A stretch of DNA of 64,000 nt, from positions 124,001-188,000 of the forward strand of contig NW_026858411.1 in NCBI RefSeq assembly GCF_026571515.1. Direction: 5' to 3'. How positions within the stretch are numbered: position 1 is the stretch's first letter; each line of letters begins with the position of its first letter. Below are positions 3,401 to 43,400 of this stretch, piece by piece. The stretch comes from Ruditapes philippinarum (taxonomy: Eukaryota). Position numbers and translations under genes: made by a program. Below the pieces are notes generated by a model, which was not told where the DNA came from, did not search any database, and was given only the letters and a program-made list of their open reading frames with translations.

Positions 3401-4202
3401 TGGGGCAGAATCATAGCCACTATATGACATTTTTGTAATATGCTGGGTTGGGGTAGAGAGCCCTTGTTTATGGCATATGCCACAGTCTTTCAAAAATAAT
3501 TAGAGTATTCACTTATAATTTGAACTAAAAAGCCACTGGCTTATATTCTGGGTTAGCATGCCGGCTTAAGCAGAAGTAAACATTTAAGCACAAACGTGGT
3601 CTCTGTAATAGAAAATTAACATTTGGTACTGAAAAACCACTTAAAGTTAAGTATAGAGCTTGTATACGACGATTAGGGTAAAGGTGATAACAGGAATGGA
3701 AGTAGAGCCAGTATGGTGCATTGGGGCAGAATCATAGCCACTATATGACATTTTCGGTATGTGCTGGGTTGGGGTAGAGAGCCTTTATTTATGGCAAATG
3801 CTACAGTCTTACAAAAATAATTACAGTATTCACTTATAATTTGAATTAAAAAGCCACTGTCTTATATCCTGGGTTAGCATGCCGGCTTTAGCAGAATTCA
3901 ACATTTAAGCACAAAAGTGGTCTCTGTAATAGAACATTAACATTTGGTACTGAAAAACCACTGTGAGTTAAGTATAGAGCTTGTATACGACGATTAGGGT
4001 AGGGGTGATAACAGGAATGGAAGTAGAGCCAGTATGGTGCATTGGGGCAGAATCATAGCCACTATATGACATTTTTGTAATATGCTGGTTTGGGGTAGAG
4101 AGCCCTTATTTATGCCAAATGCCACAGTCTTACAAAAATAATTACAGTATTCACTTATAATTTGAATTAAAACGCCATTGTCTTATATCCGGGGGTAGCA
4201 TG
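3401..4202 (+). repeat. 321-bp tandem repeat, about 2.5 copies (left arm of the element)
   Basis: Units start with TGGGGCAGAATCATAGCCAC at 3401, 3722 and 4043 and are near-identical. Confidence 0.95.
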
Positions 4203-4249
4203 CCTAATTGTGTTGGTTTATGTTATTCTTATTTCTTTTTCTTTTTTAG

Positions 4250-5082
4250 GTACGTACAAGTATCGTGGGAGGAGTTATAAAGTTTGTCCGGTGGGCAACT
4301 GTGCCGCGATAGTAGCAGACGTCCCTCTCCACTTAAGAGGTAAAGGACACTGTTTCACGAGGACGGCCTCTGTTCGCCGGGCAAAAGAGGCCATCAAAGT
4401 GACAGATATGTCGTGGCTTATCCCACCTCCTTCCGAATCGGAAGATGGCAGCCGGTCAGACGATACTGAGGCACCTCCGTCAGTTGCATCGGACAGGGAT
4501 ATGAACGCCCGAAGGTTTACGCCCTTGGTGCCCCAGAAAGCTGACAAGGCCCGTGCACCAGTGGTTGTCACGAGAAGAAGACACTTATTAGATAATTGGG
4601 TCTCTCATCTGAAAAGTTCGATAGGTGGAGACGTCACAGGAGAAAGAGCAAGGGAGTATATGGGAATAATAAAAAGGTATCTTAGATATATTGACTGCTT
4701 GGACACTCCTTGTCATATATTAGAAAAATCAACCCCACAGGTGCTATTAAACTACTTTAAGTCACGTCAGACAGAAAAGTCGCCATATTGGGCAAAAAAT
4801 GTAATTGTAAACCTCAGTAAGTTTCTTTCGTATTTAGAATTTCGAGGGTTTTTACAACCAGGATCGGCACAGGGGCACCGAGAAAGATGCAAGGGCCTTG
4901 CCCTGAGCCTTTCAAAGGCGATCACAAAACGACGAGTAAATACGCAAACGAAACTAAGGAAGAGGATTCTAAAAATAGACAATAATGAGTTTAGTGACCA
5001 TATAAAATTCAGAAGTGCAATACGTTACATGGGTACCGAGTTTACAAAACTGACGCAACCGTTCCAGAAATTTTTGATTTGC
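4250..5082 (+). pseudogene. Element protein, N-terminal part: C2H2-like zinc finger plus helical domain resembling a tyrosine recombinase core-binding (SAM-like) domain
   Basis: Strong polypyrimidine/AG acceptor at 4248-4249. Contains CPVGNC-x9-H-x5-H. The segment LLDNWVSHL..RAREYMGIIKRYLRYI..NYFKSRQTEKSPYWAKNVIVNLSKFLSYL resembles integrase N-terminal helices by eye. The frame is interrupted at 5083 by a retroelement. Confidence 0.6.
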
Positions 5083-6481
5083 AAAAAATATGATAAACAA
5101 GATCAACAAGGAAAGGCGGCGTTCAATGAACGCATCCCCCACATGACCCTGCAACAAGAACCAATGGCAAGGAGCCCAGGGGGACCCCAAACAAAAACAG
5201 GACAGGGCAAAGACAGAGCACGGACAGGTTAATCATTAAATGATAATTAATTTGTAACTGATTAGGAATTCAAAGAAAATAAAAATAGGCCCACAAAGGG
5301 GAAGGGGACAGGTGACCGGGGGAGGGTGTGGGGAGTAATCAAAGAAATAAAAACTAGAGGCAATGGGGAAGATACTTACCGTAGACGAGAAAACAACAAG
5401 GGACACAAGCAAAAGTGTCACCAAAACAGTATGAAACAACATAAGACATACATCTGAGGAACACAGTGGGGCGCCGCCTTGGAACGGTCAGCAGCATAAT
5501 AATGACTGCTGGGGAGTTTAAACCGGTTAATGGTGCACCAAACCTCGCTCTTAGCCCCACCATGTTCCTATAAACGAGACAGTGTAAATAAAATGAATCC
5601 CCGCCAAGTGAAATTCTAACAGTTGTCATGGTTACAAAAGGTTAAATAAGTAAAACACTAAAATGATCATGTAGAAACATATAAAAGTAAACCCAATGAC
5701 CATAACAAAAGTACTCAATGTCCTAAAGGAAGACAGAGCAACAAGAAAATCACCTACAAGGGCCGACGAAGCAAGGCAGAAGACGAACATTAAGACAATT
5801 CAGTCCCAAAGGGCTTTACGAACTATCCATCATAGAGTCTCCCACTTGGTCCGTCAGATGCAATCAAAAGAGGAAAGCGTAGTGTCCAACTGTAAAAGGG
5901 TTGAACACTAAACATGCAGTATGTCTTAAAATAGTAGGGTCATAACCTCTTTTAATAAAACGTTTAATGATTTTAGTAAAAACAGCAGAAAAATTACCAT
6001 GACCCAAAATCTTACGAAGTTTGTAAATCACATCGCCATAAAAACCAGGCTGGCTAATCCCTTGTCGCAGAAGAGTTTTTAAATCACTATTGAATTTGGA
6101 AATTAAATCAAAGTTACGATTGTAAAATTAAGTAAAATATTTCCGTAATTTATGATAGCGGTAGCCCTGTTTTAGAAGCTTGCTGGTAATAAAAATATTC
6201 CGCTCGTTGAAATCCTTTACGTTGCTACAAGCTCTAGCGAATCTAATTAACTGGGAAACATAAACCCCGTAAGATGTTGCATGGGGTACGTCTCCATCAA
6301 AATGTGGATAATTAACTATACAAAAGTCAAAGTCATCTCTTTTATCATAGATTTTCGTGTGAATAGAATTGTTGTTGATAGTAATATGAAGATCCAAAAA
6401 TGATGTACTAAAATTTGAAGAGTTCGTTTTATTAAGTTGTAGTTCATGCGGATAAATGTCAGACACCATTTGATCAAAATA
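5083..6481 (-). mobile_element. 5'-truncated Penelope-like retroelement (Naiad/Chlamys-like RT C-terminus plus 3' UTR), decayed
   Basis: Minus-strand translation YFDQMVSDIYPHELQL..SFLDL..YDKRDDFDF..YGVYVSQLIRFARAC..KLRKYFT*FYNRN..HTACLVFNP..DSMM is typical of PLE RT thumb/C-terminus, with no C-terminal GIY-YIG. In-frame TAA at 6128. The 3' end is defined by a near-identical solo fragment at 21664-21728. Confidence 0.8.
5779..5842 (-). ncRNA. SECIS-like hairpin (form 2) at the end of the retroelement ORF, with the 3' core GA mutated
   Basis: Minus strand reads GGAGAC tct ATGAT GGATAGTTC gt AAA GCCC ttt GGG act GAATTGTCT TAAT gttc GTCTTC. This gives helix I, an AUGA core, a 9-bp helix II, unpaired AAA and an apical ministem. 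The 3' side has TAAT where TGAT is expected. Confidence 0.6.
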
Positions 6482-6759
6482 CTATCTTCAGTTCCATTGA
6501 AGAACGTAGTTACACTAAAGGTAAAACTGTGAGAAAGCGGCGCAGTTGGACGGCACATGCCGAGAATGATTTTTCAATGGATTTCAAGTATGAAATCGAT
6601 TTGTCCTCCGAGTTGAATAAAAGACCAAACAAGACAGGCATCACTGTCAAACTGGACCAAATGCCTAGTCTGAAAGAAAAGTGGGAGTCTTTGTCCGTTG
6701 ACAATATTAAAGACAAAATATGGACCCTGGCTAAAAGAAAACAAAAATTGAATCGCTAA
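6481..6759 (+). pseudogene. Element protein, C-terminal part (Myb/SANT-like RRSWT..IKDKIW segment)
   Basis: Same reading frame as 4250-5082 once the retroelement is removed: ..FQKFLIC|TIFSSIEERSYTKGKTVRKRRSWTAHAENDF..IKDKIWTLAKRKQKLNR*. Confidence 0.55.
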
Positions 6760-9589: not shown

Positions 9590-11220
9590 TGTCATGTATC
9601 ATATCAAGCTTCGCTATAATTGTCATGAATCATATCAAGCGTCGCTATAATTGTCATTTACCTATCAAGCGCCCCCTCATTATCATGTATCGTATCAAGC
9701 GTCGCTATAATTATCATTTATCGTATCAAGCGTCGCTATAATTATTATGTATCGTATCATGCTTCGCTATAATTGTCATGTTTTGTATGAAGCTTCGCTA
9801 TAATTATCATTTATCGTATCAAGCGTCGCTATAATTGTCATATATCGTATGAAGCGTCGCTATAATTATCATTTGTCGTATCAAGCGTCGCTATAATTAT
9901 CATGAATTGTATCAAGCGTCGCTATAATTATCATGTATCGTATTAAGCGTTCGCTATAATTATCACTTATCGTATCAAGCACCGCTATTATTGTCATGTA
10001 TCGTATCAAGTGTCGCTATAATTATCATTTATCGTATCAAGCGTCGCTATAATTATCATGTATCGTATCAAGCGTCGCTATAATTATCATGTATCGTATC
10101 AAGCGTCGCTATAATTATCATTTATCGTATTAAGCGTCGCTATATTTATCATGTATCGTATCAAGCGTCGCTATAATTGTCATTTACCTATCAAGCGCCC
10201 CCTCATTATCATGTATCGTATCAAGCGTCGCTATAATTATCATGTATCGTATCAAGCGTCGCTATATTATCATTTATCGTATTAAGCGTCGCTATATTTA
10301 TCATGTATCGTATCAAGCGTCGCTATAATTATCATTTATCGTATCAAGCGTCGCTATAATTATCATGTATCGTATCAAGCGTCGCTATATTATCATTTAT
10401 CACAGGAACTTGAAATTCTATCAAATAACCAATATTAATGATAATATCCAAATATACCCCCTATATACTATAAATAAACAGGAACTTGAAATTCTATCAA
10501 ATAACCAATATTAATGATAATATCCAAATATACCCCCTATATACTATAAATAAACTTATTTATAGTATATAGGGGGTATATTTGGATATTATCATTAATA
10601 TTGGTTATTTGATAGAATTTCAAGTTCCTGTGCATTTATCGTATTAAGCGTCGCTATATTTATCATGTATCGTATCAAGCGTCGCTATAATTATCATTTA
10701 TCGTATCAAACGTCGCTATAATTATCATGTATCGTATCAAGCGTCGCTATAATTATCATGTATCGTATCAAGCTTCGCTATAATTATCATGTATCGTATA
10801 ATGCGTCGCTATAATTATCATGTATCGTATCAAGCGTCGCTATAATTATCATGTATCGATCAAGCGTCGCTATAATTATCATGTATCGTATCAAGCGTCG
10901 CTATTATTATCATGTATCGTATCAAGCGTCGCTATAATTATCATTTATCGTATCAAGCGTCGCTATAATTATCATTTATCGTATCAAGCGTCGCTATAAT
11001 TATCATTTATCGTATCATGCTTCGCTTTAATTGTCATGTATCGTATGAAGCTTTGCTATAATCATTATTTATCGTATCTAGCGTCGTTCTTATTATCATG
11101 TATCCTATCAAGCGTCGCGTTAATTGTCATGTATGGTATCAAGCGTCGCGGTAATTGTCATGTAAAGTATCAAGCACCGCGAAAATTGTCATATATATTG
11201 TCAAGCGTCGCGTTTATTGT
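9590..11220. repeat. 30-bp CpG-rich minisatellite (TATCGTATCAAGCGTCGCTATAATTATCAT)
   Basis: Dozens of near-identical tandem units, interrupted at 10401-10632. Confidence 0.97.
10401..10632. mobile_element. Fold-back MITE with 77-bp TIRs (CACAGG..CCTGTG), 7-bp TSD and a duplicated left arm; possibly P-superfamily
   Basis: TSD CATTTAT at 10394-10400 and 10633-10639. Arms at 10401-10477 and 10478-10553 (direct copy), a 2-nt loop, then the inverted arm 10556-10632. Confidence 0.8.
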
Positions 11221-11898
11221 CAGGTATAAAACTAATTAAACTTCAGATAGCACAAACAGGATTTCTTAGTTTTTACACATAAAAAAATTACGGTATACAA
11301 CATTTCTAAGTGTAAATATATGACACCCTAGGGATGATTAGCCGATTATGCTAATTTGAAAGTCAGTTACTGGTTCAAAAGTACTGTCACAATCATGCAA
11401 TCACTTTCCAGTGGTAGTGTCTCAAAACTTCGATATATCTTTGTGAACAAAGAATAATATACAATTACCTTGTTTCCGGGCATGGAAGCAACTTCATCTG
11501 TTTCAGTTGAGTAATAAAGAAGTGAAAGAATTAAAGTTAAGTACTTCAGAGCTTCACATCGTGTAAGATAATAATCAAAATACATGTAAAATTAGGCGTA
11601 TAGCATTTGGCGAAAAAAAAAATTCACTTCGTTTGGAAAACAATAGACCATATAAAAATGTGTAAAATATATCTCCCGTCAAAAGAATAAATATGCATAA
11701 AACAGGATAAGGAAGGGAAAACAATAAAAAAGAGACTCTTATAGTAAATTTATTGCGGCATAGTTTGATACATTCATTTAAACATTGCACATAAAAGAAT
11801 GCTTAGTCTTAAGAAAATAAATACTATTTTTGCGTTGCAATGCTTCAATGTGGAAATAACGTAAGCATTTGCGATTCTTGTATAAAACAATTACTTAC

Positions 11899-12030
11899 CA
11901 TTGAAACTCAAAACCAAAATAACATAAATCGTACAATACAGTATATTCTGCATGACACGTGATTTTTCTGCACAAGTGTAAACTAGCTCTCTAATAAGCG
12001 TAATATTCTGTGTATTTATACAGCATATGT
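11899..12030 (-). promoter_or_regulatory. Orphan SCP first exon ending in ATG|GTAAGT, with an upstream TATA-like box
   Basis: Homologous to the ATG-only first exons at 44170-44172 and 50963-50965 and to their flanks. TATAAATA on the minus strand at about 12013-12020. Its cognate downstream exons are absent. Confidence 0.7.
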
Positions 12031-13745: not shown

Positions 13746-16182
13746 ATGATCCGTTTACATTCATATTTTATGATAAAGATATAACTTGAAATGATAAGAA
13801 GAAGCTCTGAAAGGTTGGATACCACTTAAGCATGTTGTACCGTAAATGTAATTGAACTAATATGTAACACAAGTGATGTAATTGACCTAAAAGGCAGCGC
13901 ATATGAAACGTTCATGGTACATAAAATATTATTTATACAGTATATTCTTTGACATTAATATGAGACAGTATAACCCATAAGAAGATTATTGACATGCTTA
14001 AAAGGTCAAACAGAAAACAAATTTCCAACGAATACGCAATGAAAATGATATTAAGATTGGACTATAAAAAATTATGTAAGAAATATCAAATATTATTTCG
14101 AAATCAGTCCATTCGTCCATCTTGTTATATGAGCATGTCAAGATGACATAATGAGAGTAAGGATTAAGTACAAGTTAACAGTATCAGATGTGTTAAATAA
14201 TGTCGCTGTGCATTACAATTGTACGAAACGATTAACAAAAGTTCAAATCTGTGATAACAAGAAGTGGGCTGGTTAGAACATTCGTCTGTAAGGTGTTTAA
14301 ATGATAGACTAAAAAGGGATATATCATATTAATAAATATGGTTTTACAATTCTGTTTAGCTTCATGATCTGCATTAATTAACTATTAATATTTTTATATG
14401 ATGTTAAGTCTTAATATAACTTTAGTGATATTATCATTGACATTGCTCAAGCTGTTTTTGTTTCATTAAGTCTACATTCGTCCAATGTACATCTATATAC
14501 ATGTATGTCTTTGATGAATTTTGGTCTCTTGATATTTCGATTTCGAGGTTAAGAATTCTGTACACTTTTATGGCGCCTGATATATTTCGATCATATGCAA
14601 ATTGTTATAAATAGATTGTATTAATAAGTGCAAAAATCATGCATATTTTAACTACGTTAAATTAGTTAATTCTAAAATATTACTTGTGTTAAGGTTTTAC
14701 GTTATCGATAATTATTGAAACCTTTTACTAAATTTTATAATCGTAGTATTTAATTTCAATATTCAACTCTTCTACGACTCTTCTACGACTAAGAAGCAAG
14801 TCTGGTTTAAAAGGGGATTTGATTTCAATATTTTTTTTTAAAATACAAAGGGCATGAGAGATGTTGAACTGTTTCATTATCCTTTATGAACATACTGAAA
14901 TCAAGTATGCAATTTTCATAGAATATTGCTGTTGTCATTGTTTCCGACAAGGGATCTCACTATTTCCAAATTGTTTACCCATATTTATACTAAGCCTATC
15001 AATCAAACTAAGCATTCATTTTATTTATCTATAAGGCTTTTCTGTGGTAAAGCATTTAACTAAAATGATATTATACCTAAAACTATCAAATACCTGACAA
15101 ATAAACAGGATGATTATTGTTAACAATATATTAAACTCATTTGGAATAAGATCATTGATATGTACATATCGTAAACGTTACAACATTTTGAGCTTTAATA
15201 AAACTGAAAATAAATTAATAAGTGGTCATTGTAGCAAATTGAGAGTGTATTGAAAATTAATTTGCAAGAATAAAAGTGTTGCAAAGATGTCACGTAGTCG
15301 CACTCTCCCATACGAAATATCAATCAAATACCAGATGCGCAACCTCTTGCGAAGCAGCCCCCAGCGCCACCAAAAAAGCTTCATTCTAACTACATGATGC
15401 AAAAGAAATTAATAAACAACAATGTACTATACTTTGTTGCTTCTTTGAAATTAAACAGTAAAGATGGCGCATCAATGACCAAGAAATAGTTCAATGTCTC
15501 AGTCATTCCTTAATGAAATTATTTTTTAACATGAAACAGTTGGCATTGCTGCATAGCCTTCTGCATATAAAATATAATGTACCAAAATCCGTTGTTTTAT
15601 TTGCATTATGTATTTATACATCTGCTAAATTTATACAAGAAAGACATTGTGACAAAGGGACATTAAAATACACAATATATTTGATCAATCAAAGACCAAA
15701 GGCGGTTGATATTCAATCTAAATACAGAAGATGAGTTTGATTGGATTTAACGTCACATTGACACATTACTGGTCATACCACTCCGAACAATAATAAAGTA
15801 AAGAGGTGTCAAAGTAAACATTAACCCATGAGCTATTTTCGTAAAAAAAACAGCCATGTTAGTTTTGTATTAAAGCACGTTTCAGATTTTAATGTATTTA
15901 AACCCATATTGCATCTCCTTTCAAAGTATTATAGACAACATACGTTCGACAATAAAATAGTGAAACCTGCAATCTATAAAGCTTAACAAAGATTCTTTAA
16001 AAAAATAATATAAACATGACAGAAAAAATATACCATTGAATGACCTCAATTAAAATCAATATTATTATCATTATTTCATGAAAAGATAATATGATATTCC
16101 TATACTATATTTGACATACGTTATGGACCTTTAACAGTTTAAACTAAATAGCGAGAATTTGTTGTAATACTTGATCGATCAG

Positions 16183-16191
16183 TATATATAA
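16183..16191 (+). promoter_or_regulatory. TATA box of the secreted SCP-like gene
   Basis: TATATATAA about 50 nt upstream of ATG 16238. Confidence 0.55.
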
Positions 16192-16237
16192 TGGGCAACA
16201 ATATTGTTTTACATGTATTAAGACGCAGCAACGATTC

Positions 16238-19200
16238 ATGCAGGATATGATGAATTGGGCAGTTATTTTGTTGCATGTTTTGATTTACAATGGTAAGTTA
16301 TTGTAATTGTAAGTATATAAAAAGATATTTGTTTGTTTTGTTTTTTGTGTAAGGTGGAACTTTATTTCATCGAGTGAGCTTCAGAAACAGTATTCTCATG
16401 AGTGACGCAGCCACGATTGAGAATACTGTTTCGAAACTCACGAGACCTATATTTCAGACAAATTAGGTTATTCTAAGAAATGTAAGCGACCGTCATTGTT
16501 AAAAGTTGTGTGTTTCACGCTAGGAAAAAATAAAATGTGGAGGGATTTCATTTGGATTTGATAATTTTACCTTTATTTAAACAAAAGGAATCTTATTTGA
16601 GGAATTATACAGTCAATAAGTAATTGTTGACGGATGTGTATACATTCAAGAAGCTATTAGGAATTATGATAACATGGAATGTTTGAAAGGTTGTCTTACA
16701 AACGCTTGGTTATTCACTTATCTTTTTGGCTGATAGCGGTCATTGTATTACAGTTATTGCTTGTGGGATACTTAAATATGCCAGAATATCATCAAGATCG
16801 GTTCAGTTTTCCTCTATTCTGTTTGCATATCAATGAAATAAAAAAAAACACTTGGTGATCGGTCATTTGCTTGAATTAAAGTATATTTTATCTTTTTCAT
16901 TACGTTTGAAATTTAATTTATTTATAAATTCTAGCCTTGCTTTGCTGTAAACAGGACTGATTATATCGGAATTGTAAGCCAAATTGTGAGGTAGTAGTCT
17001 GTTTATTGAAAAGCGTGAATTTATATTTGAAAATATTGATAATTTCCCTATGAACTATAAAATATAATTTTCACGGATATATCAGTAATTTATTCAAAAG
17101 CATAAAATAAATGCTAGTTATCATTTAATTACCTTATGGTTTCTATGTCATCCAGCAAGGAGTTTGAATTTTTTATCTAAAACATTTTTTGCTTAAAGAT
17201 CCTGTATGTTTTGTGATTGATATTGTATACCACACTTGCAAAAAATTATATATGTATATAGTTATGCAAGTAAAACAATTTTCAAACATCGAACAATATG
17301 TAAAATGTGTACTGCAAATATTTAAGCACATTATATTTAATCAATAAATTATATGCATTCATTTTTTATTGGAAAATTTGACTTAGAATTTATAGAAAAT
17401 AAATTTCTAATTATCTCCCTTTATTTACGTGAAATATTATTAAAATCGGTAATATCTTTATAAATAATGCTTATTGGAACTTACAATATTGACAAATCCT
17501 AATTAGAGCATCATATTTATGAAATAAAACCATGAAAATATGTGTTACAGGATCTTTATTATGTATCATGTCTGTATTAGTTATAATCCTTTTCACTGCA
17601 GCATGGATTTTCCATTTACCTTCTGTTTAGAAATAGTTATATGTAAGTATTTTCTGATTTCTTTAACAAACAGATATGAAATTACGATAAAGCAGTTATA
17701 AAATATGACACGAGTAATTTACGAAGATATAACACTGACTAGGGTGACATCGAGGGATGTTTCTTCTAACAAAAATGTCGAGGTCGTAAGACCGAGTTAT
17801 ATTTTTTTGCAGAAACATCCCGGCATGTTGCCCAGCCAGAGTTATACTCCCGTAACTAACTCGTTTTATGTAATCATTATACCTGCTTTACCGTAATTTC
17901 ATATTTTTTTGTAACAGAAATAAGCAACAACAAAAAACTTTTTTGTAACAGAAATCAGCATACAATTTTTTTTTTTGTAACAGAAATCAGCAAAAACAAC
18001 AACCTTTTTGTAACAGAAATCAGCAAACATTCTATGTTCAGTGATTTTCCCTCTCTTGTGCTCCTTCCTTTTCGTTTCAAATGTTTCAAGTGTTAGCCCT
18101 TAAAAACCTAAAAGAATAAACCAATACCAGCCAAAAAGTCTTTAGTGATTAGACATACTCGCAGTGTTAAATTTCAATTTCAGCATAATCATGTATTTGA
18201 TTTTTTGTGAAATGGATATAAGGTCTATATTATTATTATTGCTTGGGTTATAAGAAAAAAAAAGATTGTTTTATTGATGTTTAACATTTCCAGATTCAAC
18301 GAAATACATGCACTGTATATTTCAGAAAAATCACTTAATTGCTAGATGGTAATGTCAACGAATCGGGAAATAATAGCTAAACGATTAAAAGTTGTCGATA
18401 AAGTCTGTAAGAAATATATTGAAATTATGTTTTGAAATAATAGAGAACCCCTAAAGAAAGCCAAACTCAGCAAAATTTAAACTGTTGCATGCTCGGTTTG
18501 ATTGACCATGTTCAGGGGTGGTAGTGGCTATTATAGCAAGCTTCCGTCCACGCCCCAACCACGCCGATAATTATTTAAATAAACAGTACTGTAGTTTTGA
18601 TTTTTCCCTAATACTTTAGGTGCACTCCGCCCGCCTTAGGTTTGATATCAACAGTATAAGGGGAAATGTCACTACAATTGAATATGACGGGTTTTAAATT
18701 AGAAAAGTAGAATAGTGTACTTTATAAGTTAATGCTTAACTTTAATATTTCCTTTCCTAGTTTGTGTTGGTGCTGTCGAACAAGAACCAAGCAGGGTAAC
18801 ATTAAACGGTTTTTTTACCTTTATTAACTTATATTGATCCCGTTAGATTAGATAAATGTTTTATACACTGGTATATAAAATTGTATAAGTTTTGAAACTG
18901 ATACACCAACAGAATGATATTGTTTTCGTTAACTGACACAGAATATGTTAGAACTAAGGCACTGTAAAGGCATTTTGTGATCGAAGTACTTTAAAAAGTG
19001 ACTCAAGTCTTTAATATGAATTTTTATCTTTGATCAAACAGATTGGTTAAACTTTCCGTTTAAATGGGTATGTACTTAAATCAAAAAGGTGTATGAAAAT
19101 AATTTAAATTCGAACAATTATTCCAATACTGTCAGGTGAGGAAACTACAAAGCTTTTTTACTAAACGCCAGCGGTTTTACTTCAGGTTCCTGCTCGTACT

Positions 19201-20394
19201 ATAGATTTAGACGTTCAAGCCTTCCTCAATAAGAAAGTCTGAAAGTGGCAATATGATTTTGTTAGTGTTGTGTGTGTTTAAACACCAAACAATCACTATA
19301 AAAGGCAATTATATTCTTAATATGAATATTGATTCACCTTGTTACTAATTATCTATTTAAATACATTTTAAATTATGGGCTATCTAGTACATTCTTCATT
19401 TTCTTCAGACCAACGATTATCTTATCATGAAGTGGGGAAAATGGTTTACTTTATTGGATTTCAATCATGATGGAAATCTTTCAATGGATGACCCTACAAC
19501 ATTTGAGTAAGTGAGAAAATGTATCACTTAAAACGTTATAAGAAAATCAAAATGAAATTGTGCAGTGCATAAAGCTTTATGTCAAGACTGGATGAGAAAT
19601 TATTACAGGGACCAAGACTCGGTCTCATTCATAGATTTATATAGCATATGAAATAATGCATAAATACAAATTTATTTTTTACGATATGATTATCATATTA
19701 ATTAATCTGAATTTTTTTAGCAAATACCCTTTACAGTAAATTAATGTAAATATTAAGATAAGATTAATGAGAACGTATCTTAACACAATATTTTCTCTGA
19801 CAAGTTATTTACAATAATCCATGTGCCTCACGCTGGCCATTAGTAAGCTTTCAAGTTGGATAACAAAACAATTCATATTTTTACATTAAGTTTGTTTCTG
19901 TGCCCTGCTTGATGCATTAACTTTTAAGCTGGGTCATGTCGGGACTATTTTTCAGGGCATACTATATAGCTCATGGTAATCTAAGCGATCAGCAATTGAA
20001 AACGATGAAGAACAAAATGGATAAACTATGGAAGACCTTTGTTTTCACAAACAAGAAAGAAGTCTCCAAAGAAGACTTTCTATCCATGCTGAAACAAAGA
20101 TATGAATCTAACACAACTGCTTTAATTGGGATGATGCGAGTGTTTCCAACGGATTGGTGCGAAGCGATAGACTTAAATGGAGACAAATTTCTGTCAAAAG
20201 ATGAATTCATTCTAAACTTTGTTGCTGAAACGCACAACAATATCCAAACGGATGAGAAGTTTTTCTACATGTATCATCCTATTAATGAGCGTGTTGCACT
20301 TGACGATGTCATAGAGTCTTTTGTTCTCTTTGTAACTGAGCCTGATGAGGCTAAATCAGACATTGTCTTAAACGCAATTGATTCCGGTTTATAA
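16238..20394 (+). CDS. SCP-like EF-hand protein with a predicted N-terminal signal peptide (208 aa, 4 exons)
   Basis: Exons 16238-16292 (G|GTAAGT), 18761-18795 (cctttcctAG..AGG|GTAACA), 19409-19506 (ttcttcAG..GA|GTAAGT) and 19956-20394. Phases 1/0/2 join without stops: MQDMMNWAVILLHVLIYNVCVGAVEQEPSRTNDYLIMKWGKWFTLLDFNHDGNLSMDD..DLNGDKFLSKDE..IDSGL. The last two exons are firm; the first two are inferred. Confidence 0.75.
16350..16445. mobile_element. Small hairpin-bearing dispersed repeat fragment
   Basis: gaaacagtattctca..tgagaatactgtttc inverted repeat. A related fragment lies at about 25455-25495. Confidence 0.45.
17905..18030. repeat. Short tandem repeat (tttttgtaacagaaatcagcaa) x4
   Basis: Directly visible; probably internal to a non-autonomous transposon. 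Confidence 0.85.
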
Positions 20395-21479
20395 ATTGAA
20401 ATATGAAATGAAATTGATTTGGAAAAAAAGATAATAAATCATTTATTTGCAAATCAGTATGTTAACGTCCAGCTTATTATGAGAGCATTTAATTAAGGCA
20501 TATTTGTAATAATTAAAAGATATTCCTTGTGTTATAGAATAATAGATACGCATTATCGTGGTATGTCACAAAATTCAAAAACTGGCCCGATTGTTACCAT
20601 TTCATTTCACTATCACAGCAAAAATCGTAAAGTGTGTAGGTGATTGAAACTTTGTACAATATTTTTTTCTCGAGGAATGAAACAAGAAGCTAAATTTAAG
20701 CCCATTTTTCACTATTGATTGTGAGTACAAATGCGTAAATAAACGAGACATGGAAGCCTTGTTAAAACAATCCAGCTCCTAACTATAATATATAAAAAAA
20801 CACCATAAATTGGAGAAATAGAATCTAAATAAGGACTTGGAACGTTCTAATTAGGAGTTTGAAAAGCAAAGTAAGGAGAAAAAAATCATCATTCAAACTT
20901 TGTAACTTATTAGACTTGTAAACAAACAACTAATCAGGATTTCATTTCTCCTAATTAGTGTTTTCAATTTTCGAAATAGGAGTAACAAACTCCTAATTGG
21001 GGTTTAAGTTTTCAAGACCTTTCCTCCTACAAGAGAGGTTTTTAAGACCTAATTAAGTTTAAAACTCATAAGTAGAACTCCTTATTAGAAGTTGTAAATT
21101 TTTATTTTAAGCTCACGAAGTCCTTACCAAGAATTCATAAAGTCGTTACCTAGCTTATATTTATTTTCATTGCAAGTTTTAAAGACCTTTTAGCATTTTA
21201 ATTATCCTAAGTCCTAATAGTTTTTTTCTTCTGTTTGTAAAATCATGATTGAGCTTTCATTTTTCCTAATTAGGATTTTTAAAACCCCTTATTAGAAATA
21301 TTAAGTCTTATTTATGCTTTTAAATCAATATGTTTCAAAGAGTTTATGTTTCATTATAAATTATTGAGGTTGGCATCAGGCTGTTTACGTAACTACATAA
21401 TTTAAAAATTTTATGAATATTTTATAGTTTGCAATGTTATGTTTACTTTACTACTAAATAGTAAATAGCATTGCTATAA

Positions 21480-22420
21480 TCTACGTCAAAGCCTTGCTAT
21501 TTATAACTAGTTGAAACGGGTTGTACTTTTGTCAAACACTAGAAAGGATCAAGAAGTATCAATATTTTATTTGCATTACATATGAAACTATGACTAATAT
21601 ATTTTGATGGAACTGGTCACTGCCATAAACGTTTATACGTATTTTGTAAAGTAATAAGTTACTGGGTCGTGCGGGGGTTGTGTTCATTGAACGCCGCCTT
21701 TCCTTGTTGATCTTGTTTATCATATTTTATTTTGGAATAACGTCTCCATATAATTTTATTATTGCGTTTAACCGTCGATCTGATAGAATCAATTGATAAC
21801 TTACATCAGTATTGTGGTCCTATATTTATATAATTCAGCTGATCTCAGTACGCCAACAGGATAAGGTCAATTAATAATTATATATGCAAAAAGACATGTT
21901 TTCAGATTGACTTATTTGATATACTTATTTAAAAAGAAAACACATCGTGTCGTATTTCTTGACCTCGTTTACTTGATATATTATTCTGCAAGAAATAATT
22001 TGCATAGTGGAACATAGCTTTTAAGCAAGAACAGTTAGAACATACAGCAAACGAATGAATTAAAGTTTGCTCGATTAAATACGAACACACGGAAATATGG
22101 AAATGCTTGCAAATAACACCACTTTCATGTTTAAATTACAATTATTCGGACAACTTATGAGAAATTTATAAGACTAAAAGATACTATAGAATGTAAGTTG
22201 CCTTAAACCCCACATTTAACGTGTTCAGCTTATATTAAATTTTATTAAATGTTGTTTGCGCCAGTTCAGATATGCACTGGTGCATTGTCACATATGAATA
22301 GATTTTTGGATAGTAAACAAGTAAGTGATGTATTTCATAATTTCTTTTTTTCAGTTCAGTAATTAGTAATGAAACTTCACAACCCTAATAAGATAAAAGT
22401 TTACATTTAGTTTTTTAGCC
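21480..22420 (+). promoter_or_regulatory. Inverted diverged copy of the upstream region and non-coding first exon of SCP copy C
   Basis: Aligns with the reverse complement of about 24400-25430, e.g. ggtcaattaataattatatatgcaaa..gacatg. It retains ggatagtaaacaa|GTAAGT at 22321, homologous to the copy C donor at 24508-24509. Confidence 0.75.
21664..21728 (+). mobile_element. Solo 3'-terminal fragment of the same Penelope-like element
   Basis: Reverse complement is nearly identical to 5085-5150 (aatatgataaacaagatcaacaaggaaaggcggcgttcaatgaac). It is absent from the homologous position near 25240. Confidence 0.8.
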
Positions 22421-22880
22421 AATGATATGCTCATTCTACATTTATCAATAAGTATTGAAAACGATTCATTTTAAAATGATCTTTTTATGTTTATTTCATT
22501 TTACGACATGCAATAAGCAATGTCTATATCAGCACATTATTGATATTAAATGTAAAAAAATGCAGAGTTACTGACTTCAGGCGTAGAAAATATCGTTCTG
22601 TCACATGAGATTGAATCAAATTATGTAGGCTCAAGGGCATCTGCTTACATCATTTTGTGTTGAAAATGAATTTGCTTTAACTTCATTTTTTGACGTATGA
22701 AATTACCTTAAACAGATCTGTGATTTTAGAAAGACCAACAGATTTGATGCTTTTATTTCACAAGTACGGTAGCATTTTAAGAAGACACACCTCTTATCGT
22801 ATGTTAATGCGAGTCAATTTATAAGAAAAGTATACACACAAAACTTCAAAAAGCAATTTGGTATTGTTACATGTATTTAT

Positions 22881-23954
22881 TTACAAGCCCTCTTCCATTG
22901 CTCGTTGAACCGGGTCTGGAAGTGAGCTATCTTCACTTGTCAGGTAATGGATCCAGTAGCCCTTCAGTCTGTCTAAAGGAATTTTTCGATCAACTGGTGA
23001 AAAATGCGCATAAAACCTCTTATCCTTCTCTTCGTCCTCGTGCCCCTCCGCCTTGAGGATTGCCAAAGCTTCCTTTTCAGAAACAAAACCATCGTGCGCG
23101 ACGTCTACAAAGTCACCAATCTCAGCTTGACACTTTTTAATTCGCTCAACAAACTTTTCTTTGTCGGCTTTAAATGCAGCATTTTGGTATTCTGCAAACT
23201 CGTCCACCGTCAATTCTTCTTTTCCCCAGTTCACATATTCGCACCACCATTTCGTGAATTTCTCACTTATTTCCTTCTTTTCGTCATCTTTCAACTCATG
23301 TTGCTTTGTAAATTTATCTCTGAAAGACAATTACATTTGTTATCTCCCTTATCTAAGTAGACTTGAAGAAATACACTCTAATTGTTTAAGAGTTAAAGGC
23401 AATTTAAACAGACACAGAAATTATATCCAATCATTTGATATTCTTAAATGTATTACATATCTGTCATTTATTGCATTTGTCAATAAACAATTGGGCTAAG
23501 TGTCAGTTTAATAATACATATAATACATCTTTTTCAGTGGCGTATGGAAAGCATATATGGCGAGTGTTCCTTGATACCACTAAAATATTAATGTTTTGTG
23601 GAAGGTTGCTGTTAACTTGTCCCGAGTGACTATTTCAGACATACTGTCTTCAAGCTAATCGTCACGATAAAACATTTGCCTCTCCAAGGACTGGTTCTAG
23701 CAGACAGACGGTGCAATTAAGCGAATAAAATAACTAAAATTTGTTGTTCTATAAAGAATAAAAGATAAATATTGAAAATAAATAAACTTGTAATGAAATA
23801 AAAGATGTATTAACCTGGCTTTCTATAGTGAATGAAATAATATATGTCGTTACCTGGCTTTCTCCATGTCTGCATAGCAAACTTTGCCATCATTATTGCC
23901 ATCAAATAAACTGAACCATCGCTTCCACTTTGAGATAAGGAAGTCATTCGCCAT
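22881..23954 (-). CDS. SCP-like EF-hand protein (copy C, 179 aa)
   Basis: Exons 23854-23954 (MANDFLISKWKRWFSLFDGNNDGKVCYADMEKAR) and 22881-23319, with canonical GT/AG. Probable non-coding first exon with donor at 24508-24509. Confidence 0.92.
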
Positions 23955-26280
23955 GATACTTGAAACAAGCCCACGGTTCAAATACGTCTGATATATTCCA
24001 CCTTAAACAAAGAGTAAATAAAAGATCACGTGTTAAATTAATAAAACGGGGTCAGTATATAAGGAATTCATGTCGCGTTTAGAGAAATGTATGCTGTTTT
24101 CGGAATATGTAATGCATTATTCAATCAGTAAACTAAGCTAACATGTTCATGAATTCATACCACATACATACTCATGTTGCTAACTTAAAAATCTGACAAG
24201 CTGAAAATTAGACAAATTCTATGAGCTATCAATTTTAAAGAAAAAATATGTAAACTATTGTTTCCTTTTCAATGCAAAACATCTCTAGGGAAAAGAAGCC
24301 TGAGAAATATGATAAAAATATAACAGATTCTATAAAATGATGATGTTACATAATGATGTTAATTGATTTATCACTAGAAAGTTGTAATTTATAAATGAGT
24401 GTAAAACCCAAATATAAAAATTCTAAAACTACACATTTTTATCATAAAGATCGTGAAGTTTCATTACAATTAACTTACTAAATAAAAAAGTTATAAATAC
24501 ATTTCTTACTTGTTAACTATCCGAAAATTTATTCTTATCTGACAATACATCAGACGACATCTTCTAAACTGATGCAAAATACATTTCGTAAATATAAGCT
24601 CAACCATTTGAACGAGGGGTTCAAGGCTTAAAGTCTAACATTTTATCGTATCATTTAGTCATATTATGTTCTTATTAGTCGTCTAGTCTATTGTAATTTG
24701 AACATGCAAATTGATGCTATCTGCATGCATTTGCATATTTCCGTTTGTTTGTATGTAATTGAGCAGACGTTAATTCATTCTCATTGTTTGTACTTTTGTT
24801 GTGTGTCGCTTAAGATAACTATGCTACACCATGTAAATTATAACTTGCAATATTATATATCAAATAAAAGAGGTCATGAAATTAGAATTAATGTCTTTTT
24901 TTAAACAAGTCATAAATTAACTCAATCTGCAGACATGTCTCTTTGCATATATAATTATTAATTGACCATATCATGTTGTGGTTTAAAGGTCAGTTGAATT
25001 TCACATTGTGTCAAGTAAATATAGGATTACAATACTGCTGTCCATTGTTTCTATCAAATCGGCGAATACACGATAAAATTGCGTACAAAATACAAAAAGG
25101 GGCACTCTTTCAATATAACCGGAAAGTAACTAGATGACTTTGATAGTGTGTGATTGACTTACAGTCTAATAAAATTGACGAAGGCGATAATATGATTTAT
25201 GCGGAACTTTGGGTTAAATGATATGGAGATGTACTTCTAAAAAAAGAATATAACTTTTCAAATGCGTCTATGAAAGCGACCAGTTCCACCAGAATTTGTT
25301 ATTAACAGTTTTATATCTAATGCGACAAAAAATAATAAGACTGATACTACTTGATGACGTTAAGTATTTTGACAAAAAAAAGTTTACAGCCAGTTTCAAG
25401 TAGTAGTAATTAACAGGGCTTTCACGTGGATAACGTACAGGATATTTGTTTTTATTTTATTTCATCGAGTTTGCTTTAAAACTGTATTCTCACGAGATGA
25501 TCAAACTTTCATCTTCATATTACGCAATGTTGCTTTTACAAATGACGACAACTTTATATGGTATGTGTCCATTTTGGGTCGTCATGAAAACCGGCTATAC
25601 GCTACGTTACGCTTTTTCACCAAGATATAGCCAGGCTTCAGTACATATTTGTGCAGTCTGACCAGGCCCTATATTATTGTATATTATTAGTAGGTGAAGT
25701 GTTTTATTGTGATATTGAAAATCCTTAGAACTCGATTGGACTGTTTCAAATATAAAGCAGAAGGAGCACATTACACAACAAATTAAGCAAGTTTGGCAAT
25801 AAAATCTTTTGCACTTTTCTCGTGTAAATAACCAGTAATATAACTACACTACACATAAGTACATTAAATATATTATTTCAAACAAATAAATATATGAATC
25901 TTTTATATTTGATTTAATTTTCATGACCTGCAATAAGCAATGTATATGTAAGCACAATAATGCTAATAAAAGTCGAACATTTAATCAATGTTGTTTACTT
26001 TAGGTGGAGATGATCTCGTTCTGTAACATGAGATAAGCTTTTTGATTACATATTGCAGACTTAAAGATAACATTTGTTTAAATTAGAACGTGTTGTTCCT
26101 CATCTTTTGGCGTTCAAAGTTATTGAAGACGAACAGACTTGGTGATTTTATTAAACAAGCGCAGTAGCACCTTCAATAGGTCATAACTGTACCTGTATGA
26201 CTAATGTTAATGCGATAATATAAACTGTTCAGGGATTAATACACACGACTTTCAAATTTCAATTTGTAACGTTATATATT

Positions 26281-27121
26281 TTACAACCCCTCTTCGATTG
26301 CTCGTTGAACCGGGTCCGGAAGAGTGCTATCTTCGCTTGTTAGATAATGGATCCAGTAGCCCAACATCCTGTCTAAAGGAACCTTTCCATCAACTGGCGA
26401 AAAATGCGCATAAAACCTTTTATCCTTCTCTTCGTCGCCGTGTCCCTCTGCCTTCAACATTGCTACAATTTCCTTTTCTGAAAGAAAACCATCGTGCGCG
26501 ACATCGAGGAAGTCACCAATCTCAGCTTGACATTTTTTAATTCGCTCAACAAACTTCTCTTTGTCCGCTTTGAATGCAGCATTTTGGTATTCTGCAAATT
26601 CGTCCACCGTTAATTCTTCTTTTCCCCAATTCACGTATTCGCACCACCATTTCGTGAATTTGTCACTTATTTCCTTCTTTTCGTCATCTTTCAACTGATG
26701 CTGTCTTGTAAATTTCTCTCTGAAAGACAAACACATTTGTTACCGCCATCATTTAAATTTGGCTTGAAGGAATCTTTGAAGAGTTAAATAGATGAAAACA
26801 ATGTAGAAAGACACATAATTTTTATTCAAACTTAAAATGTACGGAGATGTATAGAATATCGTTTACGAAGATGTATTGACACACAGACAATTAACGTATT
26901 TAACAAACAAAGCAAGTTATCTTTGTTTTTCGTTTAAGTAATAATAATTTATGGATAATCATTATTATCCTATCCTTATTATGTATAATTAATAGTGAGT
27001 GAAATAATATATGTCGTTACCTTGCTTTCTCCATGTCTGCAAAGCAAACTTTGCCATCATTATTACCATCAAATAAAGTAAACCAGTGCTTCCACTTGGA
27101 GATAAGGTAGTCATTCGCCAT
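26281..27121 (-). CDS. SCP-like EF-hand protein (copy D, 179 aa), recent tandem duplicate of C
   Basis: Exons 27021-27121 (MANDYLISKWKHWFTLFDGNNDGKVCFADMEKAR) and 26281-26719. Flanks are homologous to those of copy C. Confidence 0.92.
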
Positions 27122-30282: not shown

Positions 30283-32139
30283 TTACTGGTTGATATCGCC
30301 CATTGCCTTTTGGCATGGATCAGGCAATGAACTATCTTCGGATGTTAGGTGATGCGTCCACAACTCCACCATTTTCTTGACTGGAAACGTGTTACCCTTT
30401 TTGTTGAATTCATGGAAAAACTTTTTATCCTGTTCTTCATCACCATGGCCACCTGCTTTCAAGATGATCAATATGTCTTCTTCGGAGATATTTCCATCGC
30501 CAGAAACACCGACAAAGTGACAAATAATCTCCTCGCATTTATGCATCCTTGCCACAAATGCCTCTTTGTTGGCTTTAAAAGCAGCATTTTGCTTTTCTAA
30601 AAACTCATCTACCGTGATTTCTTTCTTCCCCCACATAACGTATTCAACCCACCATTTAGTAAAGGCGTCGTTAGATTTTTGCTTCTGTTCCCCTTCTAAA
30701 TGATGAAGACTTGTAAACTTGCTCCTGTCGTGTAAAGATTACAATCATTAAAATTTGGATTGTCCAACATATTTTTAAAGGTAAGTGTAAAATATAATTA
30801 TCATGTATCTAACAAAGTATATGTAAATAGATATTTCATCTATGTCTTGTTAGAATAAGTTTATTGAAATGAAACAAGGGACGGAATGTGAGTTTTGTCA
30901 TTGATGGTTCAGAGGCAAGTGAAAAGTTTAAAGAATTATAACACGATTGATATGTTTTATTCAAGTATGTAGCCTTTTAAAGAAACATTACAAATCATTT
31001 AAAACATATTAAAATCATTAACAAACATTATCTTTTGCTTATTAAATAAATGGTTATCCCGTTTAATAAGAGACTTTTCCTATAGCACTGTAAATTTCTA
31101 CATTTGTGTCGTTATGCCATAAAACCAAATAAAACAAGAAGGAAAATTTGAATTCTCTTTTACTTTTCGTAATGAAATATAATTAACATAAATATTTATA
31201 AATTATATTCATAAAAAATTGTCGGGCCTTTAATGAGTGATAAAAATTGTCTGTGCTTTAATGAGTGATAACACTGAATTTGTCTTAGCAAATGGACTTA
31301 AAAGGACTTGACTGGGATAAATTTTCTACAATTAAATATAATAAAGGAACAAGCACGGATTCGAGATAACAAGTGTCGTTGCATTGTACTGAGATTATCT
31401 GAGAGCTATGTCTTACATAATTCTCAACTCACACTTAAAGTTTCCATATTTGCATTTGTAAAAATTAAAATTCTTTGGAAATTTTTATTGAACTTTTAGA
31501 CATATACCGGTATACGTCTGCTTGCATCATATGAAATTTCTACCCGGACAGACATTTATCATTGAAATAGAAAAATATCGCTAAAGTGGAAGGATATAAC
31601 AATAAAACCAAACACCAATCCTTGAACATGATCCACACAACCAACAAACCTATATTTTATGAAATAAGGAAAAAACAGAATACCTAAAGAACGCCATAAA
31701 ACGACAAAAATGAAATTGATTGAGTCTGACGGTACTAGACATTGCAAGGTAGCCTATAATCATGATAATGCCCCTAGCACTGGTTTAAGCAAAATTCTTT
31801 ATTTCAACATGTTATAATGTAATATCAAGAAAAATGAATATCTGTTTTTGATTTTGTCAAGTTGATAACCGTTTCACTTTCCGTGAAACCACTTCAAACA
31901 CTCTCCCATTTTAAATAACAACAACAATGTCATATACATGTCGCATTGTCTTTCCGAGCAAGATGACATGTTGTTGTTAAACATCAAATATGTTGAAATT
32001 CATTGCTTTGCATGAAATGATACATTAATAAATCATACCTTGCAGTTTCCATATCGGCATAGCAAACTTTTCCATCTTTGTTGTGGTCAAAAAAGCCAAA
32101 CCAATTTCTCCATTTTGATATCAGATAGTCGTTTGCCAT
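30283..32139 (-). CDS. SCP-like EF-hand protein (copy E, 180 aa)
   Basis: Exons 32039-32139 (MANDYLISKWRNWFGFFDHNKDGKVCYADMETAR) and 30283-30724. The EF3 loop is degenerate (GVSGDGNISEED). Candidate non-coding exon donors at about 33500 and 33702, and TATAAAA at about 33785. Confidence 0.9.
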
Positions 32140-40464: not shown

Positions 40465-43400
40465 TTAGACTCCGAATTCAATCGCAGATTTAACGAGATC
40501 CGGTTTAGTGCTGTCCTCCAACGTCAAAAGTGTTACCCATGAATCAGTCATCACCGATATTGGAACCTTGTCGTCAATTGGATGGTAGTCCTCGAAGAAC
40601 TTTTCATCCAATGGGCTGTTATTGTGACCGCCAGTCTTCAAAATGACCTCAAATTCTTCCTTTGTGATACTTCCATCATTGTTAGTATCAACAATGTTAC
40701 CAATCATATTATTGCACGTATACATCATCTTTCTAAACACCTTTTTATCTGTCTCCCATTTGTTGCTCATCCCCTCTATGAAATCAGATTCGGTCAGTTC
40801 AGATTTTCCAAAGAGAACACATTCAGTCCACCATTTTCCAAACTGATTCAGAATTGTCTTTTTTTCGGCATCACTTAGATGATTTAAGTTGCTAAACCTT
40901 GACCTGTTTTGGGAGAAGAAAACAAAACATGTCATGTTTGAAATGATCTACATACTAAATAAATCACAATTATAAGAATACGATAAACCCTTCACTCGTT
41001 GTAGTGTTATTACATTTGTTTATTCCCAATATTTAGAAATTCCCATGCTTGAGTATATTGTATTTGTAGGTACATTTATTCTTTATTAATATGAATAAAA
41101 CACGCACTTACATTTCATCGTATTAATTTAAAATGTTTTCCAGAAAACCGAATAAAACCCACGCTTTTGTATACTTAAATGTGTTTTTCGTCTTTATTTC
41201 ATTATAATAATAAAATCTTTCTTTTTGTATACATGTATTTGTTTAGAATTTTAAATATAATTGATTGTTCCCCTTATCATGACATAAAACTACACAAATT
41301 CCATACTACTCGATTTAATAATAAGATATAAGATTTAAGATAAGTCACGAATAATAACATTTAATGAGATCGAATTTGCAAAACACACTTTTATGCAATA
41401 GAAAGAAAAAGAATAAACAATCATCTAAAAATCTCATAGTTTCCAGTATCCTAGCTACTAGAAAGTTTATGTGCTTTGGTAAAAAGAATATAATAACTGT
41501 GAAATAACCTTTGCAGATCGCCATCGCTAAAGTCGACTTTACCATCCTCATTAATATCAAACCACGTGTACAATAATTTCCATTTAGATACTAGAAAATC
41601 TAACGCCTGAAATTAAAATACAGTTTGACTCGTATATTTACACGCAAGCAATTTGTATAACTTAGTGTTTTAAGAGTAAAAACTAGGCTTAGCAAATATT
41701 GTTTTTTACAGAAAATAACGTATCTCGTATCATAGTATGATGCCGATGGATTTGACAACGAGAACTAGCAACAAATACAATAAGGTTGTGCCAAAAGTAT
41801 AGTGTACGCTTTGTCTGTTCAAAAGTCTCAAAATACTTAGAATAGTTCAGGTAATTGGTTGTTATAAAGTTCCAATTTGTTGCTTTCTCAAAAAATGATT
41901 ATTTATAAAAAATATATTCTTTAACTTTAATCCATTTCAATAGAATTATAGATATGGATAGTTAATGAACTTACGTCATTATATCATTTACATGTACTAG
42001 AAATAAAGAAATTGCAAAACTTACCTTAATTTAAAATCGTTTCCCAGGTTTCATAATGAAAGAAGTACATATTAATTATTATATTATATTGATAATTTTG
42101 ATGACTAACAACAAAAGCTACCTGCTATTAACTGTTATGGTATGTTGCTCAGATAGAAGCGAATAAGGTGTTTGATACATTCACGACCGCGAGCTCAATA
42201 TGGTCTCCAAACAATACAGCTCGGAAGAATCGTTATATATTGATAGAAATATGTCAATGAATTCCTTCTTTGTGATGAATGCGGAAATATCTATAACTGA
42301 ATTCTTTTAAAGAATTTCAAGTCGTTAACAACTTTTTAGGTTTAGCATCTTAGGCTTTTTTTAGAAATTTTATCATGCTGTTTTCTTTTATTCTTATCCA
42401 ATTTTCAATCCTGATCTTTATATTTTGATTAAATTCTTAACTGAAATACATGAATAGAGATACATCTGTCATAAATCGTCTCAAGCGTCGCAATAATAAG
42501 CATGTATCGTATCAAGCATTGCAAAAATTGCCATGTGCATGTACATTGTCAAGCTTCGCGATATAGTTGTCATGCGTCGTATCAAGCATCGTGAAATTGG
42601 CATGTATTGTATCAAGCATCACTATAATTATCATGTATTGTATCAAGCATCGCGAAAATTATCATGAATTGTATTAAGCATCGCTATAATTATCATGTAT
42701 TGTATCAATCGTCTATATAATTATCATGCATTTTATCATGCATCGCGAAATTTGCCATGAATTGCATCAAGCGTCGCTATAAATCTCATGTATAATATCA
42801 AGTTTCGCGAAAATTGTCACGTGTTGTATCGTCATGTACCGTATCAAACATCGCTATAATTATCATGTATTGCATCAAGCATCGCGAAAATTATCATGAG
42901 TTGTATTCTGCATCGCAAAATTATGTCATATATTGTATCAAGCATTGCGAAAATTGTAATGTTTATTGTCAAGCATCGCGGTAATTGTCATTTATGGCAT
43001 CAAGTGTCGCTTTTAGGGCCATGTTTCGTATCAAGCATTTGTGAATATTGTCATGTTTATTGTCAAGAGTCGCGATAGTTGTCATTTCAAGCCAAACGGC
43101 ATTTTGCCAGGTAATGTATCACCGGATTCGTGTTACGTGTTATGTGTGGACATCCAAATGAAACTTATTATACTTAAGATGGAACCAACCTGATTTCGTA
43201 CATATTTTACATATGAGAATGTAATGATTAGTAAAAATATGTGACACCTTATAGATGGTAAGCATATTTATCTAATTGTGCTGATTCGAATGTTAGTTAC
43301 AATAACAAAAGTTCTGTCACAGTCACACAAACATTTTACACTGATTTTGTCTCAATAATGGCAAGGAAACAATATGTCTTCTGAACAAAGAATAATATAC

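Follow-up and report, generated by a model that had tools for sequence, protein, structure and literature searches.

A predicted signal peptide on a sarcoplasmic calcium-binding protein of Ruditapes philippinarum and related leader cassettes in its gene array

We analyzed a stretch of 64,000 nucleotides from the clam Ruditapes philippinarum (NCBI RefSeq assembly GCF_026571515.1, contig NW_026858411.1, positions 124,001 to 188,000 of the forward strand; hereafter the window, whose numbering is used throughout), and in it a plus-strand gene at 16238–20394, the target, which encodes a member of the sarcoplasmic calcium-binding protein (SCP) family. With a probability that we put at roughly 0.55, the target is a transcribed four-exon SCP gene whose product is exported, loaded with calcium, and active as a calcium carrier or nucleation moderator in mantle or extrapallial fluid; that the product enters the secretory pathway, as such, is highly probable from its predicted leader. 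A preliminary description of this DNA, made from the letters alone, had presented the gene as a secreted, neofunctionalised member of a normally cytosolic family. The family and its normally leaderless state are borne out (the fold is that of Pf-SCP, the SCP of Pinctada fucata, the calcium ligands are kept, and most relatives are leaderless). The gene is not a single, recently neofunctionalised member, as the leader is common to a venerid clade that reaches Mercenaria and has its closest members on other contigs, and three paralogues in the window carry it too.

Gene structure and transcripts

The target has four exons, with GT-AG ends at all introns and a single open frame of 208 amino acids. 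Exon 1 (16238–16292, 55 nt) ends in a phase-1 donor, has in-frame Met codons at positions 1, 4, and 5, and would supply the n- and h-regions of the predicted signal peptide; micro-exon 2 (18761–18795, 35 nt, phase 1 to 0) would supply the c-region, with predicted cleavage after Ala23, and a short linker. Exon 3 (19409–19506) is homologous to the exon in which the leaderless paralogues start and carries the EF-hand I loop (D47–D58), and exon 4 (19956–20394) encodes a degenerate EF II, the EF III loop (D135–E146), a degenerate EF IV, and the stop. The preliminary description had read this structure correctly: exon 3 begins AG ACC AAC GAT without the usual ATG, and the two upstream exons splice to it in phase. 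The translation matches RefSeq XP_060599517.1 of R. philippinarum at 100%. RefSeq models are computed, probably with RNA-seq as input, so this agreement is not fully independent. The TATA box placed before the upstream exons is present as a putative motif, TATATATAA, at 16183–16191, 55 nt 5′ of the ATG, and a candidate polyadenylation signal, AATAAA, lies at 20433–20438 (one contig of run X7 extends to 20421).

The three joints predicted from the sequence were sought over 15000–25600 in the contigs of four runs (24 were listed) drawn from four studies; that these runs are RNA is the tool's guess. Joints 16292/18761 and 18795/19409 occur in contigs of two runs (X1 and X5, two studies) and joint 19506/19956 in those of three (X1, X5, and X7), and the depth is identical, 31.6, at all three. 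A 621-nt contig (X5 record 21) carries 93 nt 5′ of exon 3, as expected for exons 1 and 2. The three exact GT-AG skips fit spliced transcripts and a transcribed gene. Depth in the exon-4 bin (9892 in X2 vs. 29–38 in X5 and X7) was not used as evidence, since genes cannot be ranked by contig depth, to which paralogues contribute at 88% likeness. Three further joints, 18791/19457, 19507/20044, and 19494/20166, were not taken for isoforms; they have non-canonical ends and unknown middles and were read as probable paralogue contigs. Exon 4 has alleles with at least 10 differences in nine codons (six silent, three changing) and no stop, counted over 40 of 418 difference rows.

Intron 1 contains palindromic (inverted-repeat) elements resembling miniature inverted-repeat transposable elements, at 17651–17927 and 16374–16441, and its remaining parts attract many repeat contigs.

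Leader, fold, and calcium sites

The best 11-residue window of the target leader (residues 7–17) has a hydropathy of 2.29, within the range of its clade (1.85–2.92); the leaderless rows of our tree reach at most 0.78. By a crude signal-peptide criterion, a pattern of small residues after the hydrophobic core (V21 and A23) is kept in all seven closest sequences. The core proposed in the preliminary description thus stands, but its cleavage site shifts: cleavage between Ala23 and Val24 is likelier than between Gly22 and Ala23, because Ala23 is present in 7/7 closest sequences while position 22 varies among G, V, and D in an alignment of 14 sequences. As a control for chance, we found 21 open stretches running from ATG to GTAAG in the DNA of the window, eight of them hydrophobic (from five donor sites, two of which are not cassettes), and several metagenome fragments owe their hydrophobic stretch to intron read-through. 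Because hydrophobic mini-exons arise by chance in AT-rich DNA, it is the junctions and conservation, and not hydrophobicity alone, that make the case for the leader. No second hydrophobic segment or motif for retention in the endoplasmic reticulum (ER) was seen on scanning the target chain, which ends in SGL and not in a KDEL/HDEL-type C-terminus. ER entry, cleavage after Ala23, and secretion are given here as predictions for the target.

The target is predicted to retain the SCP fold. Its AlphaFold model (pLDDT 81) is a compact globular domain of four EF-hand helix pairs, the architecture of SCPs of about 175–185 amino acids, and the best Foldseek match in the PDB is Pf-SCP (9L5M; TM 0.79/0.91, root-mean-square deviation (rmsd) 1.7, E = 7e-11, 30% identity); other fold neighbours are aequorin, obelin, and coelenterazine-binding protein, at rmsd 2.7–5. 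A sequence search of the PDB returned two of 177,635 sequences at E <= 0.01, both SCPs (7e-21 for Pf-SCP, and 5.5e-5). Relative to Pf-SCP, the EF I ligands D16/N18/D20/K22/S24/D27 become D47/N49/D51/N53/S55/D58 and the EF III ligands D106/N108/D110/Q112/E114/E117 become D135/N137/D139/F141/S143/E146, so that 11 of the 12 ligand positions of the two calcium sites are compatible with Pf-SCP. D47, D51, and D58 are invariant (14/14 aligned sequences), D1, D5, and E12 of EF III are retained in 11 of the 12 clade rows, and the clade conserves few positions as strongly as these ligands; EF II and EF IV of the target are degenerate by sequence, which leaves two canonical loops where SCPs have two or three. 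EF III is canonical in the leader-bearing clade, whereas it has decayed in four leaderless paralogues (the 23930, 27097, 32115, and 56309 genes, at 22881–23951, 26281–27118, 30283–32136, and 56285–57211). What sets the target apart from plain SCPs is its spliced hydrophobic leader, since SCPs are otherwise cytosolic and leader-free.

All three N-glycosylation sequons of the preliminary description are present in the mature chain (NLS53, NLS71, and NTT115), though NLS53 sits within the first EF loop and is private to the target. The sequon at N115 recurs in several relatives, and N-glycosylation is predicted most plausibly there. Sequons occur in 11/12 rows of the clade vs. 11/28 leaderless rows, the rows being related and not independent.

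Leader-bearing relatives and a chimeric neighbour

The nearest relatives of the target are RefSeq proteins on other contigs with 54–69% identity and a leader of the same type. Among 1.84 billion representatives, a search returned 62 matches, which include more leader-bearing Ruditapes proteins, one from Mercenaria, and one from Pinctada; the ESM Atlas gave generic mollusc EF-hand/SCP clusters only. We built a tree of 44 mature domains (35 of 104 fetched proteins and nine window models), omitting fragments, near-duplicates, and one protein with an aberrant N-terminus (P0022), and calling P0010 leader-bearing from its exon-2-like part; "leaderless" here describes the state of the sequence record and is no proof of cytosolic location. 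The target falls within a leader-bearing clade of 12 rows (support 100/100) that has a long stem branch and consists of 11 Ruditapes rows, some of which may be haplotypes of a fragmented assembly, and Mercenaria XP_053380824.1. That all 15 venerid leader-bearing bodies form one group, a hypothesis recorded before tree building, was rejected (p-AU = 0.0023); that the target clade and a second leader-bearing pair in the window, paralogues B1 and B2, form one clade was not (p-AU = 0.397). With these two values, the sequences give good support to one recent capture of a leader and leave room for a second; separate captures by all three leader-bearing lineages would go beyond these results, given that p-AU = 0.397 allows the target clade and the B pair to be one.

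The window is AT-rich animal DNA (GC 27–42%) with a tandem array of SCP-like genes, nine of which were modelled from two core exons, in addition to broken copies. A phase-2 intron follows EF I at the same place in all nine, target included. The target is, as first described, the most divergent paralogue in the window, with 23–31% identity to the eight others (mean 27% vs. 36–47% for the rest). Loss of the initiator, real in the target, is not unique to it: four of the nine genes lack it, and a homologous leader cassette lies upstream of all four. The three other homologues of exon 1, at 11953, 44224, and 51018, are on the minus strand, and each has an ATG and a phase-1 donor followed by a phase 1-to-0 micro-exon, with a TATA-like motif about 60–90 nt 5′ of the ATG in all three. 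In ungapped comparison, target exon 1 is identical to two of these cassettes at 36/55 and 30/55 nucleotides, values reached in 0/20,000 and in at most 0.5% of shuffles, respectively; target exon 2 has no significant match to the DNA of exon 2 in the other cassettes.

One of these genes, at 11953–342 on the minus strand and head-to-head with the target, is on sequence comparison a chimera of one lineage's cassette and the body of a cytosolic-type gene. Its cassette (11469–11953; exon 1 11953–11899, exon 2 11497–11469) is used by RefSeq XP_060599516.1 and, with the adjoining intron, matches the B-type genes as far as 3225, exon 1 being 80% identical. Its body (342–1121; exons 1121–1015 and 783–342), where the initiator position reads AAG, has 84–86% nucleotide identity to the leaderless gene 54123–53209 vs. 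49–61% to the B genes, and nests, at starred support, among Ruditapes and Mercenaria proteins that lack the leader. Intron 2 of the chimera and that of B1 share a 31-bp minisatellite in the same location (9592–11211 and 42469–43004, respectively), as far as sequence can tell a mark of shared cassette ancestry. The segment 1975–1310 had been taken for upstream DNA of the cytosolic gene; this was wrong, as it is a dispersed repeat, and the chimera junction is therefore only bracketed to 3225–1137. The repeat has at least five copies in the array (1979–1174, 13892–13191, 36104–35847, 39198–37809, and 46829–45410), one of them inside that bracket, and is a possible substrate of recombination. The chimera may, alternatively, be an assembly mis-join, given that the repeat and a 10-kb repeat-filled intron span its join.

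Paralogue B1 (40465–44224, minus strand; exons 44224–44170, 43444–43407, 41606–41509, and 40903–40465) is leader-bearing and corresponds to RefSeq XP_060599522.1 (209 amino acids). Paralogue B2 (47891–51018, minus strand) has the same cassette, but its exon 1 (51018–50963) is 56 nt long and out of frame through an extra T in a T run (50980–50990), either a frameshift or an assembly error; the protein in RefSeq XP_060599523.1 begins with a Met of exon 2. A broader scheme for venerid clams, in which a portable promoter and two-exon cassette was repeatedly spliced onto cytosolic SCP genes by recombination within the array, reaching three body lineages in the window (target clade, B pair, and chimera) and steadily adding to an undescribed family of exported calcium carriers for calcifying fluids, is tentative, and we hold it to be rather less likely than the proposal for the target itself.

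The broken SCP copies, all on the minus strand (37668–36801, 35892–35587, and 45748–45537), include one with a CTG initiator and an in-frame stop, a partial last exon, and a remnant resembling the 53209 gene. GC-richer open reading frames in the long intron of the chimera (4171–5232, plus strand; 5864–6573, minus strand) are probably remains of mobile elements; a Pfam scan of four reading frames in that intron gave no match, and those on the minus strand (5864–6573) presumably derive from retroelement fragments, which they resemble.

Export, calcium, and known systems

We have proposed that the two 5′ exons encode a cleavable signal peptide, in which case the product would likely be exported, and a two-site EF-hand protein would hold calcium in extracellular fluids, most likely mantle or extrapallial fluid, and probably pass it on at sites rich in carbonate. 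Seawater calcium is about 10 mM. At that level the sites would stay filled, which points to a carrier or nucleation moderator, as for Pf-SCP, and not to a fast cytosolic buffer; an exported, permanently loaded carrier is what we infer from ligands that are Pf-SCP-like and conserved in the clade. The leader itself would be a cassette of two exons (in phase 1 and phase 0, in that order) joined by splicing to what was ancestrally the start exon. It would have arisen at least once before the Ruditapes–Mercenaria split, and a duplicate of a cytosolic gene of the array would recently have acquired it a further time. Manila clams would likely secrete such proteins into their fluids, and transport of calcium for the shell is possibly their use, a role extrapolated for the target from Pf-SCP. 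Pf-SCP is reported to bind two calcium ions, through EF I and EF III, and to give calcium up to carbonate in vitro (PMC12542302). In Mercenaria under acidification, an SCP was reported at raised levels in plasma and extrapallial fluid free of cells (PMC9781830), and an SCP is reported from Mercenaria haemolymph as well (PMC8902148); either may be another paralogue, the Mercenaria identifiers concerned being mRNA.chromosome_11.2118.1 and 11.1876.1.

Several observations weigh against this proposal. The n-region of the target leader has no basic residue, and His13 and Asn18 lie in or near its core; one calcium ligand, S143 in place of E114, is unlike Pf-SCP; and the Pfam EF-hand scores of the target are below the curated cut-offs. 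Among the joints listed, the two 5′ joints are absent from X2 and X7, and X2 has none of the three despite its high exon-4 depth. The pI of 4.66 is no more acidic than that of leaderless relatives, and acidity was dropped as an indicator of a shell role. Pf-SCP is described as localised within mantle epithelial cells (PMC12542302), and since it is leaderless and inside those cells, a mineral-related function need not require secretion. The Mercenaria fluid proteomes are reported to list plainly cytosolic proteins as well (PMC9781830), and an oyster study assigned SCP in secretions to cell contamination (PMC6193008).

The alternative that survives best, although we consider it unlikely, is that the protein is secreted but calcium merely stabilises its fold, its action being in mucus, digestion, or defence through a partner or a small hydrophobic ligand. 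It would suit the lineage-specific expansion and fast divergence of the clade (11 Ruditapes rows, long stem branch), the unexceptional acidity of the target, the presence of aequorin, obelin, and coelenterazine-binding protein among its fold neighbours, and the established reasoning that millimolar calcium cannot be buffered by a high-affinity site; extracellular proteins are also reported to evolve faster in general (PMC2839354). The closest solved relative is, however, the calcium carrier Pf-SCP (rmsd 1.7) and not the ligand binders (rmsd 2.7–5). Less probable still is that the leader gives entry to the secretory pathway while the protein is kept there to store calcium in the lumen or in granules, as CREC proteins do. 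A signal-like leader shows ER entry only, and several leaderless neighbours have kept the canonical calcium sites less well (EF III of the 23930, 27097, 32115, and 56309 genes); yet a KDEL/HDEL-like end is absent, the C-terminus is like that of leaderless members, and repeated duplication would be more typical of exported proteins. A leader without function, or 5′ exons that are in effect not translated, with Met37 as the start of an ordinary cytosolic SCP, is very improbable. In its favour, Met37 has an A at −3 and the first ATG a weak context, chance hydrophobic mini-exons do occur in the window, and RefSeq models B2 from an internal Met. Against it, of the three in-frame ATGs ahead of the core two have a purine at −3, an open frame runs through both junctions, which occur in transcripts, the leader is conserved whereas Met37 is private to the target among the 14 aligned sequences, and a start there would delete the conserved beginning of the helix, NDYL.

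SCPs are regarded as buffers inside cells, and their presence in bivalve fluid proteomes has been read as a calcium response or as contamination. A leader-bearing clade would explain some SCPs in fluids by design, and would provide the export step that the calcium-delivery model for Pf-SCP leaves open. The surprise lies less in the target alone than in the clade and in the captured cassette next door: the chimera would be an unusually legible gain of a signal peptide by exon capture, with donor cassette, leaderless sister, and dead start codon within 60 kb. For these proteins, the venerid proteomes and tissue RNA-seq data that already exist can be searched again at once. The leader-bearing proteins have RefSeq entries under an automatically given name, and no description of signal-peptide SCPs or of a venerid SCP expansion was found in the literature covered, which excludes most subscription journals; the passages on SCPs in PMC8933548 and PMC13190495 (with three supplements of the latter searched) mention them without a leader.

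Among known proteins, Pf-SCP has the fold of the target and, like it, two calcium sites, one each in EF I and EF III; the twelfth residue of the first loop is Asp in both. Pf-SCP differs in being leaderless and 178–180 amino acids long, aligning from target residue 33; the target adds a 30-residue leader and sequons, and the phrase "signal peptide" does not occur in the main text of the Pf-SCP paper (PMC12542302). The compact four-EF-hand fold of the target is also that of Nereis SCP (2SCP/1Q80; TM 0.70/0.83), amphioxus SCP (2SAS, TM 0.56), and calexcitin (2CCM, TM 0.63; these two values by query). Classical SCPs and calexcitin are cytosolic, and differ from the target in this and in their 15–20% identity to it; Nereis SCP has three active calcium sites, whereas EF II and EF IV of the target are apparently degenerate. 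The CREC proteins (calumenin, Cab45) have six or seven EF hands, about 315–360 amino acids, and an HDEL/HDEF-type end, unlike the target with its 208 amino acids, four EF-hand positions, and SGL end.

Secreted EF-hand proteins linked to shell formation include EFCBP of pearl oysters. Abalone Hdh-SMP5, a secreted EF-hand calcium binder tied to shell formation, is a precedent for the proposed role and differs from the target in being Asp-rich and 134 amino acids long (PMC10741955). Shell proteins of this type were not identified among the matches of the target's protein, PDB, and 1.84-billion-representative searches. The word "sarcoplasmic" was not found in supplements of a Pinctada nacre proteome, which concern another species and have gene identifiers as headers. 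Pinctada A0A194AJ93/KAK3106025.1 (P0063/P0086) has, like the target, a signal-like leader and an SCP-like domain (E = 1.2e-5), followed by an Asn/Gly/Tyr-rich tail of about 240 residues, an architecture typical of shell matrix proteins; it differs in its shorter, unlike leader, its long tail, its long branch, and its uncertain placement, and is probably an independent route to secretion. Mytilus californianus XP_052094789.1 (P0039) has an SCP domain after a long Thr/Pro/Lys-rich, mucin-like segment and may represent another extracellular SCP whose model is truncated. Co-option into mantle secretomes is reported (PMC5400390), as are duplicates that gain a targeting peptide and change compartment (PMC4202327, PMC3879971, PMC2397506). 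The clam case would differ from such relocalised duplicates in that the gain is a spliced two-exon cassette, one capture of which is visible in the same array.

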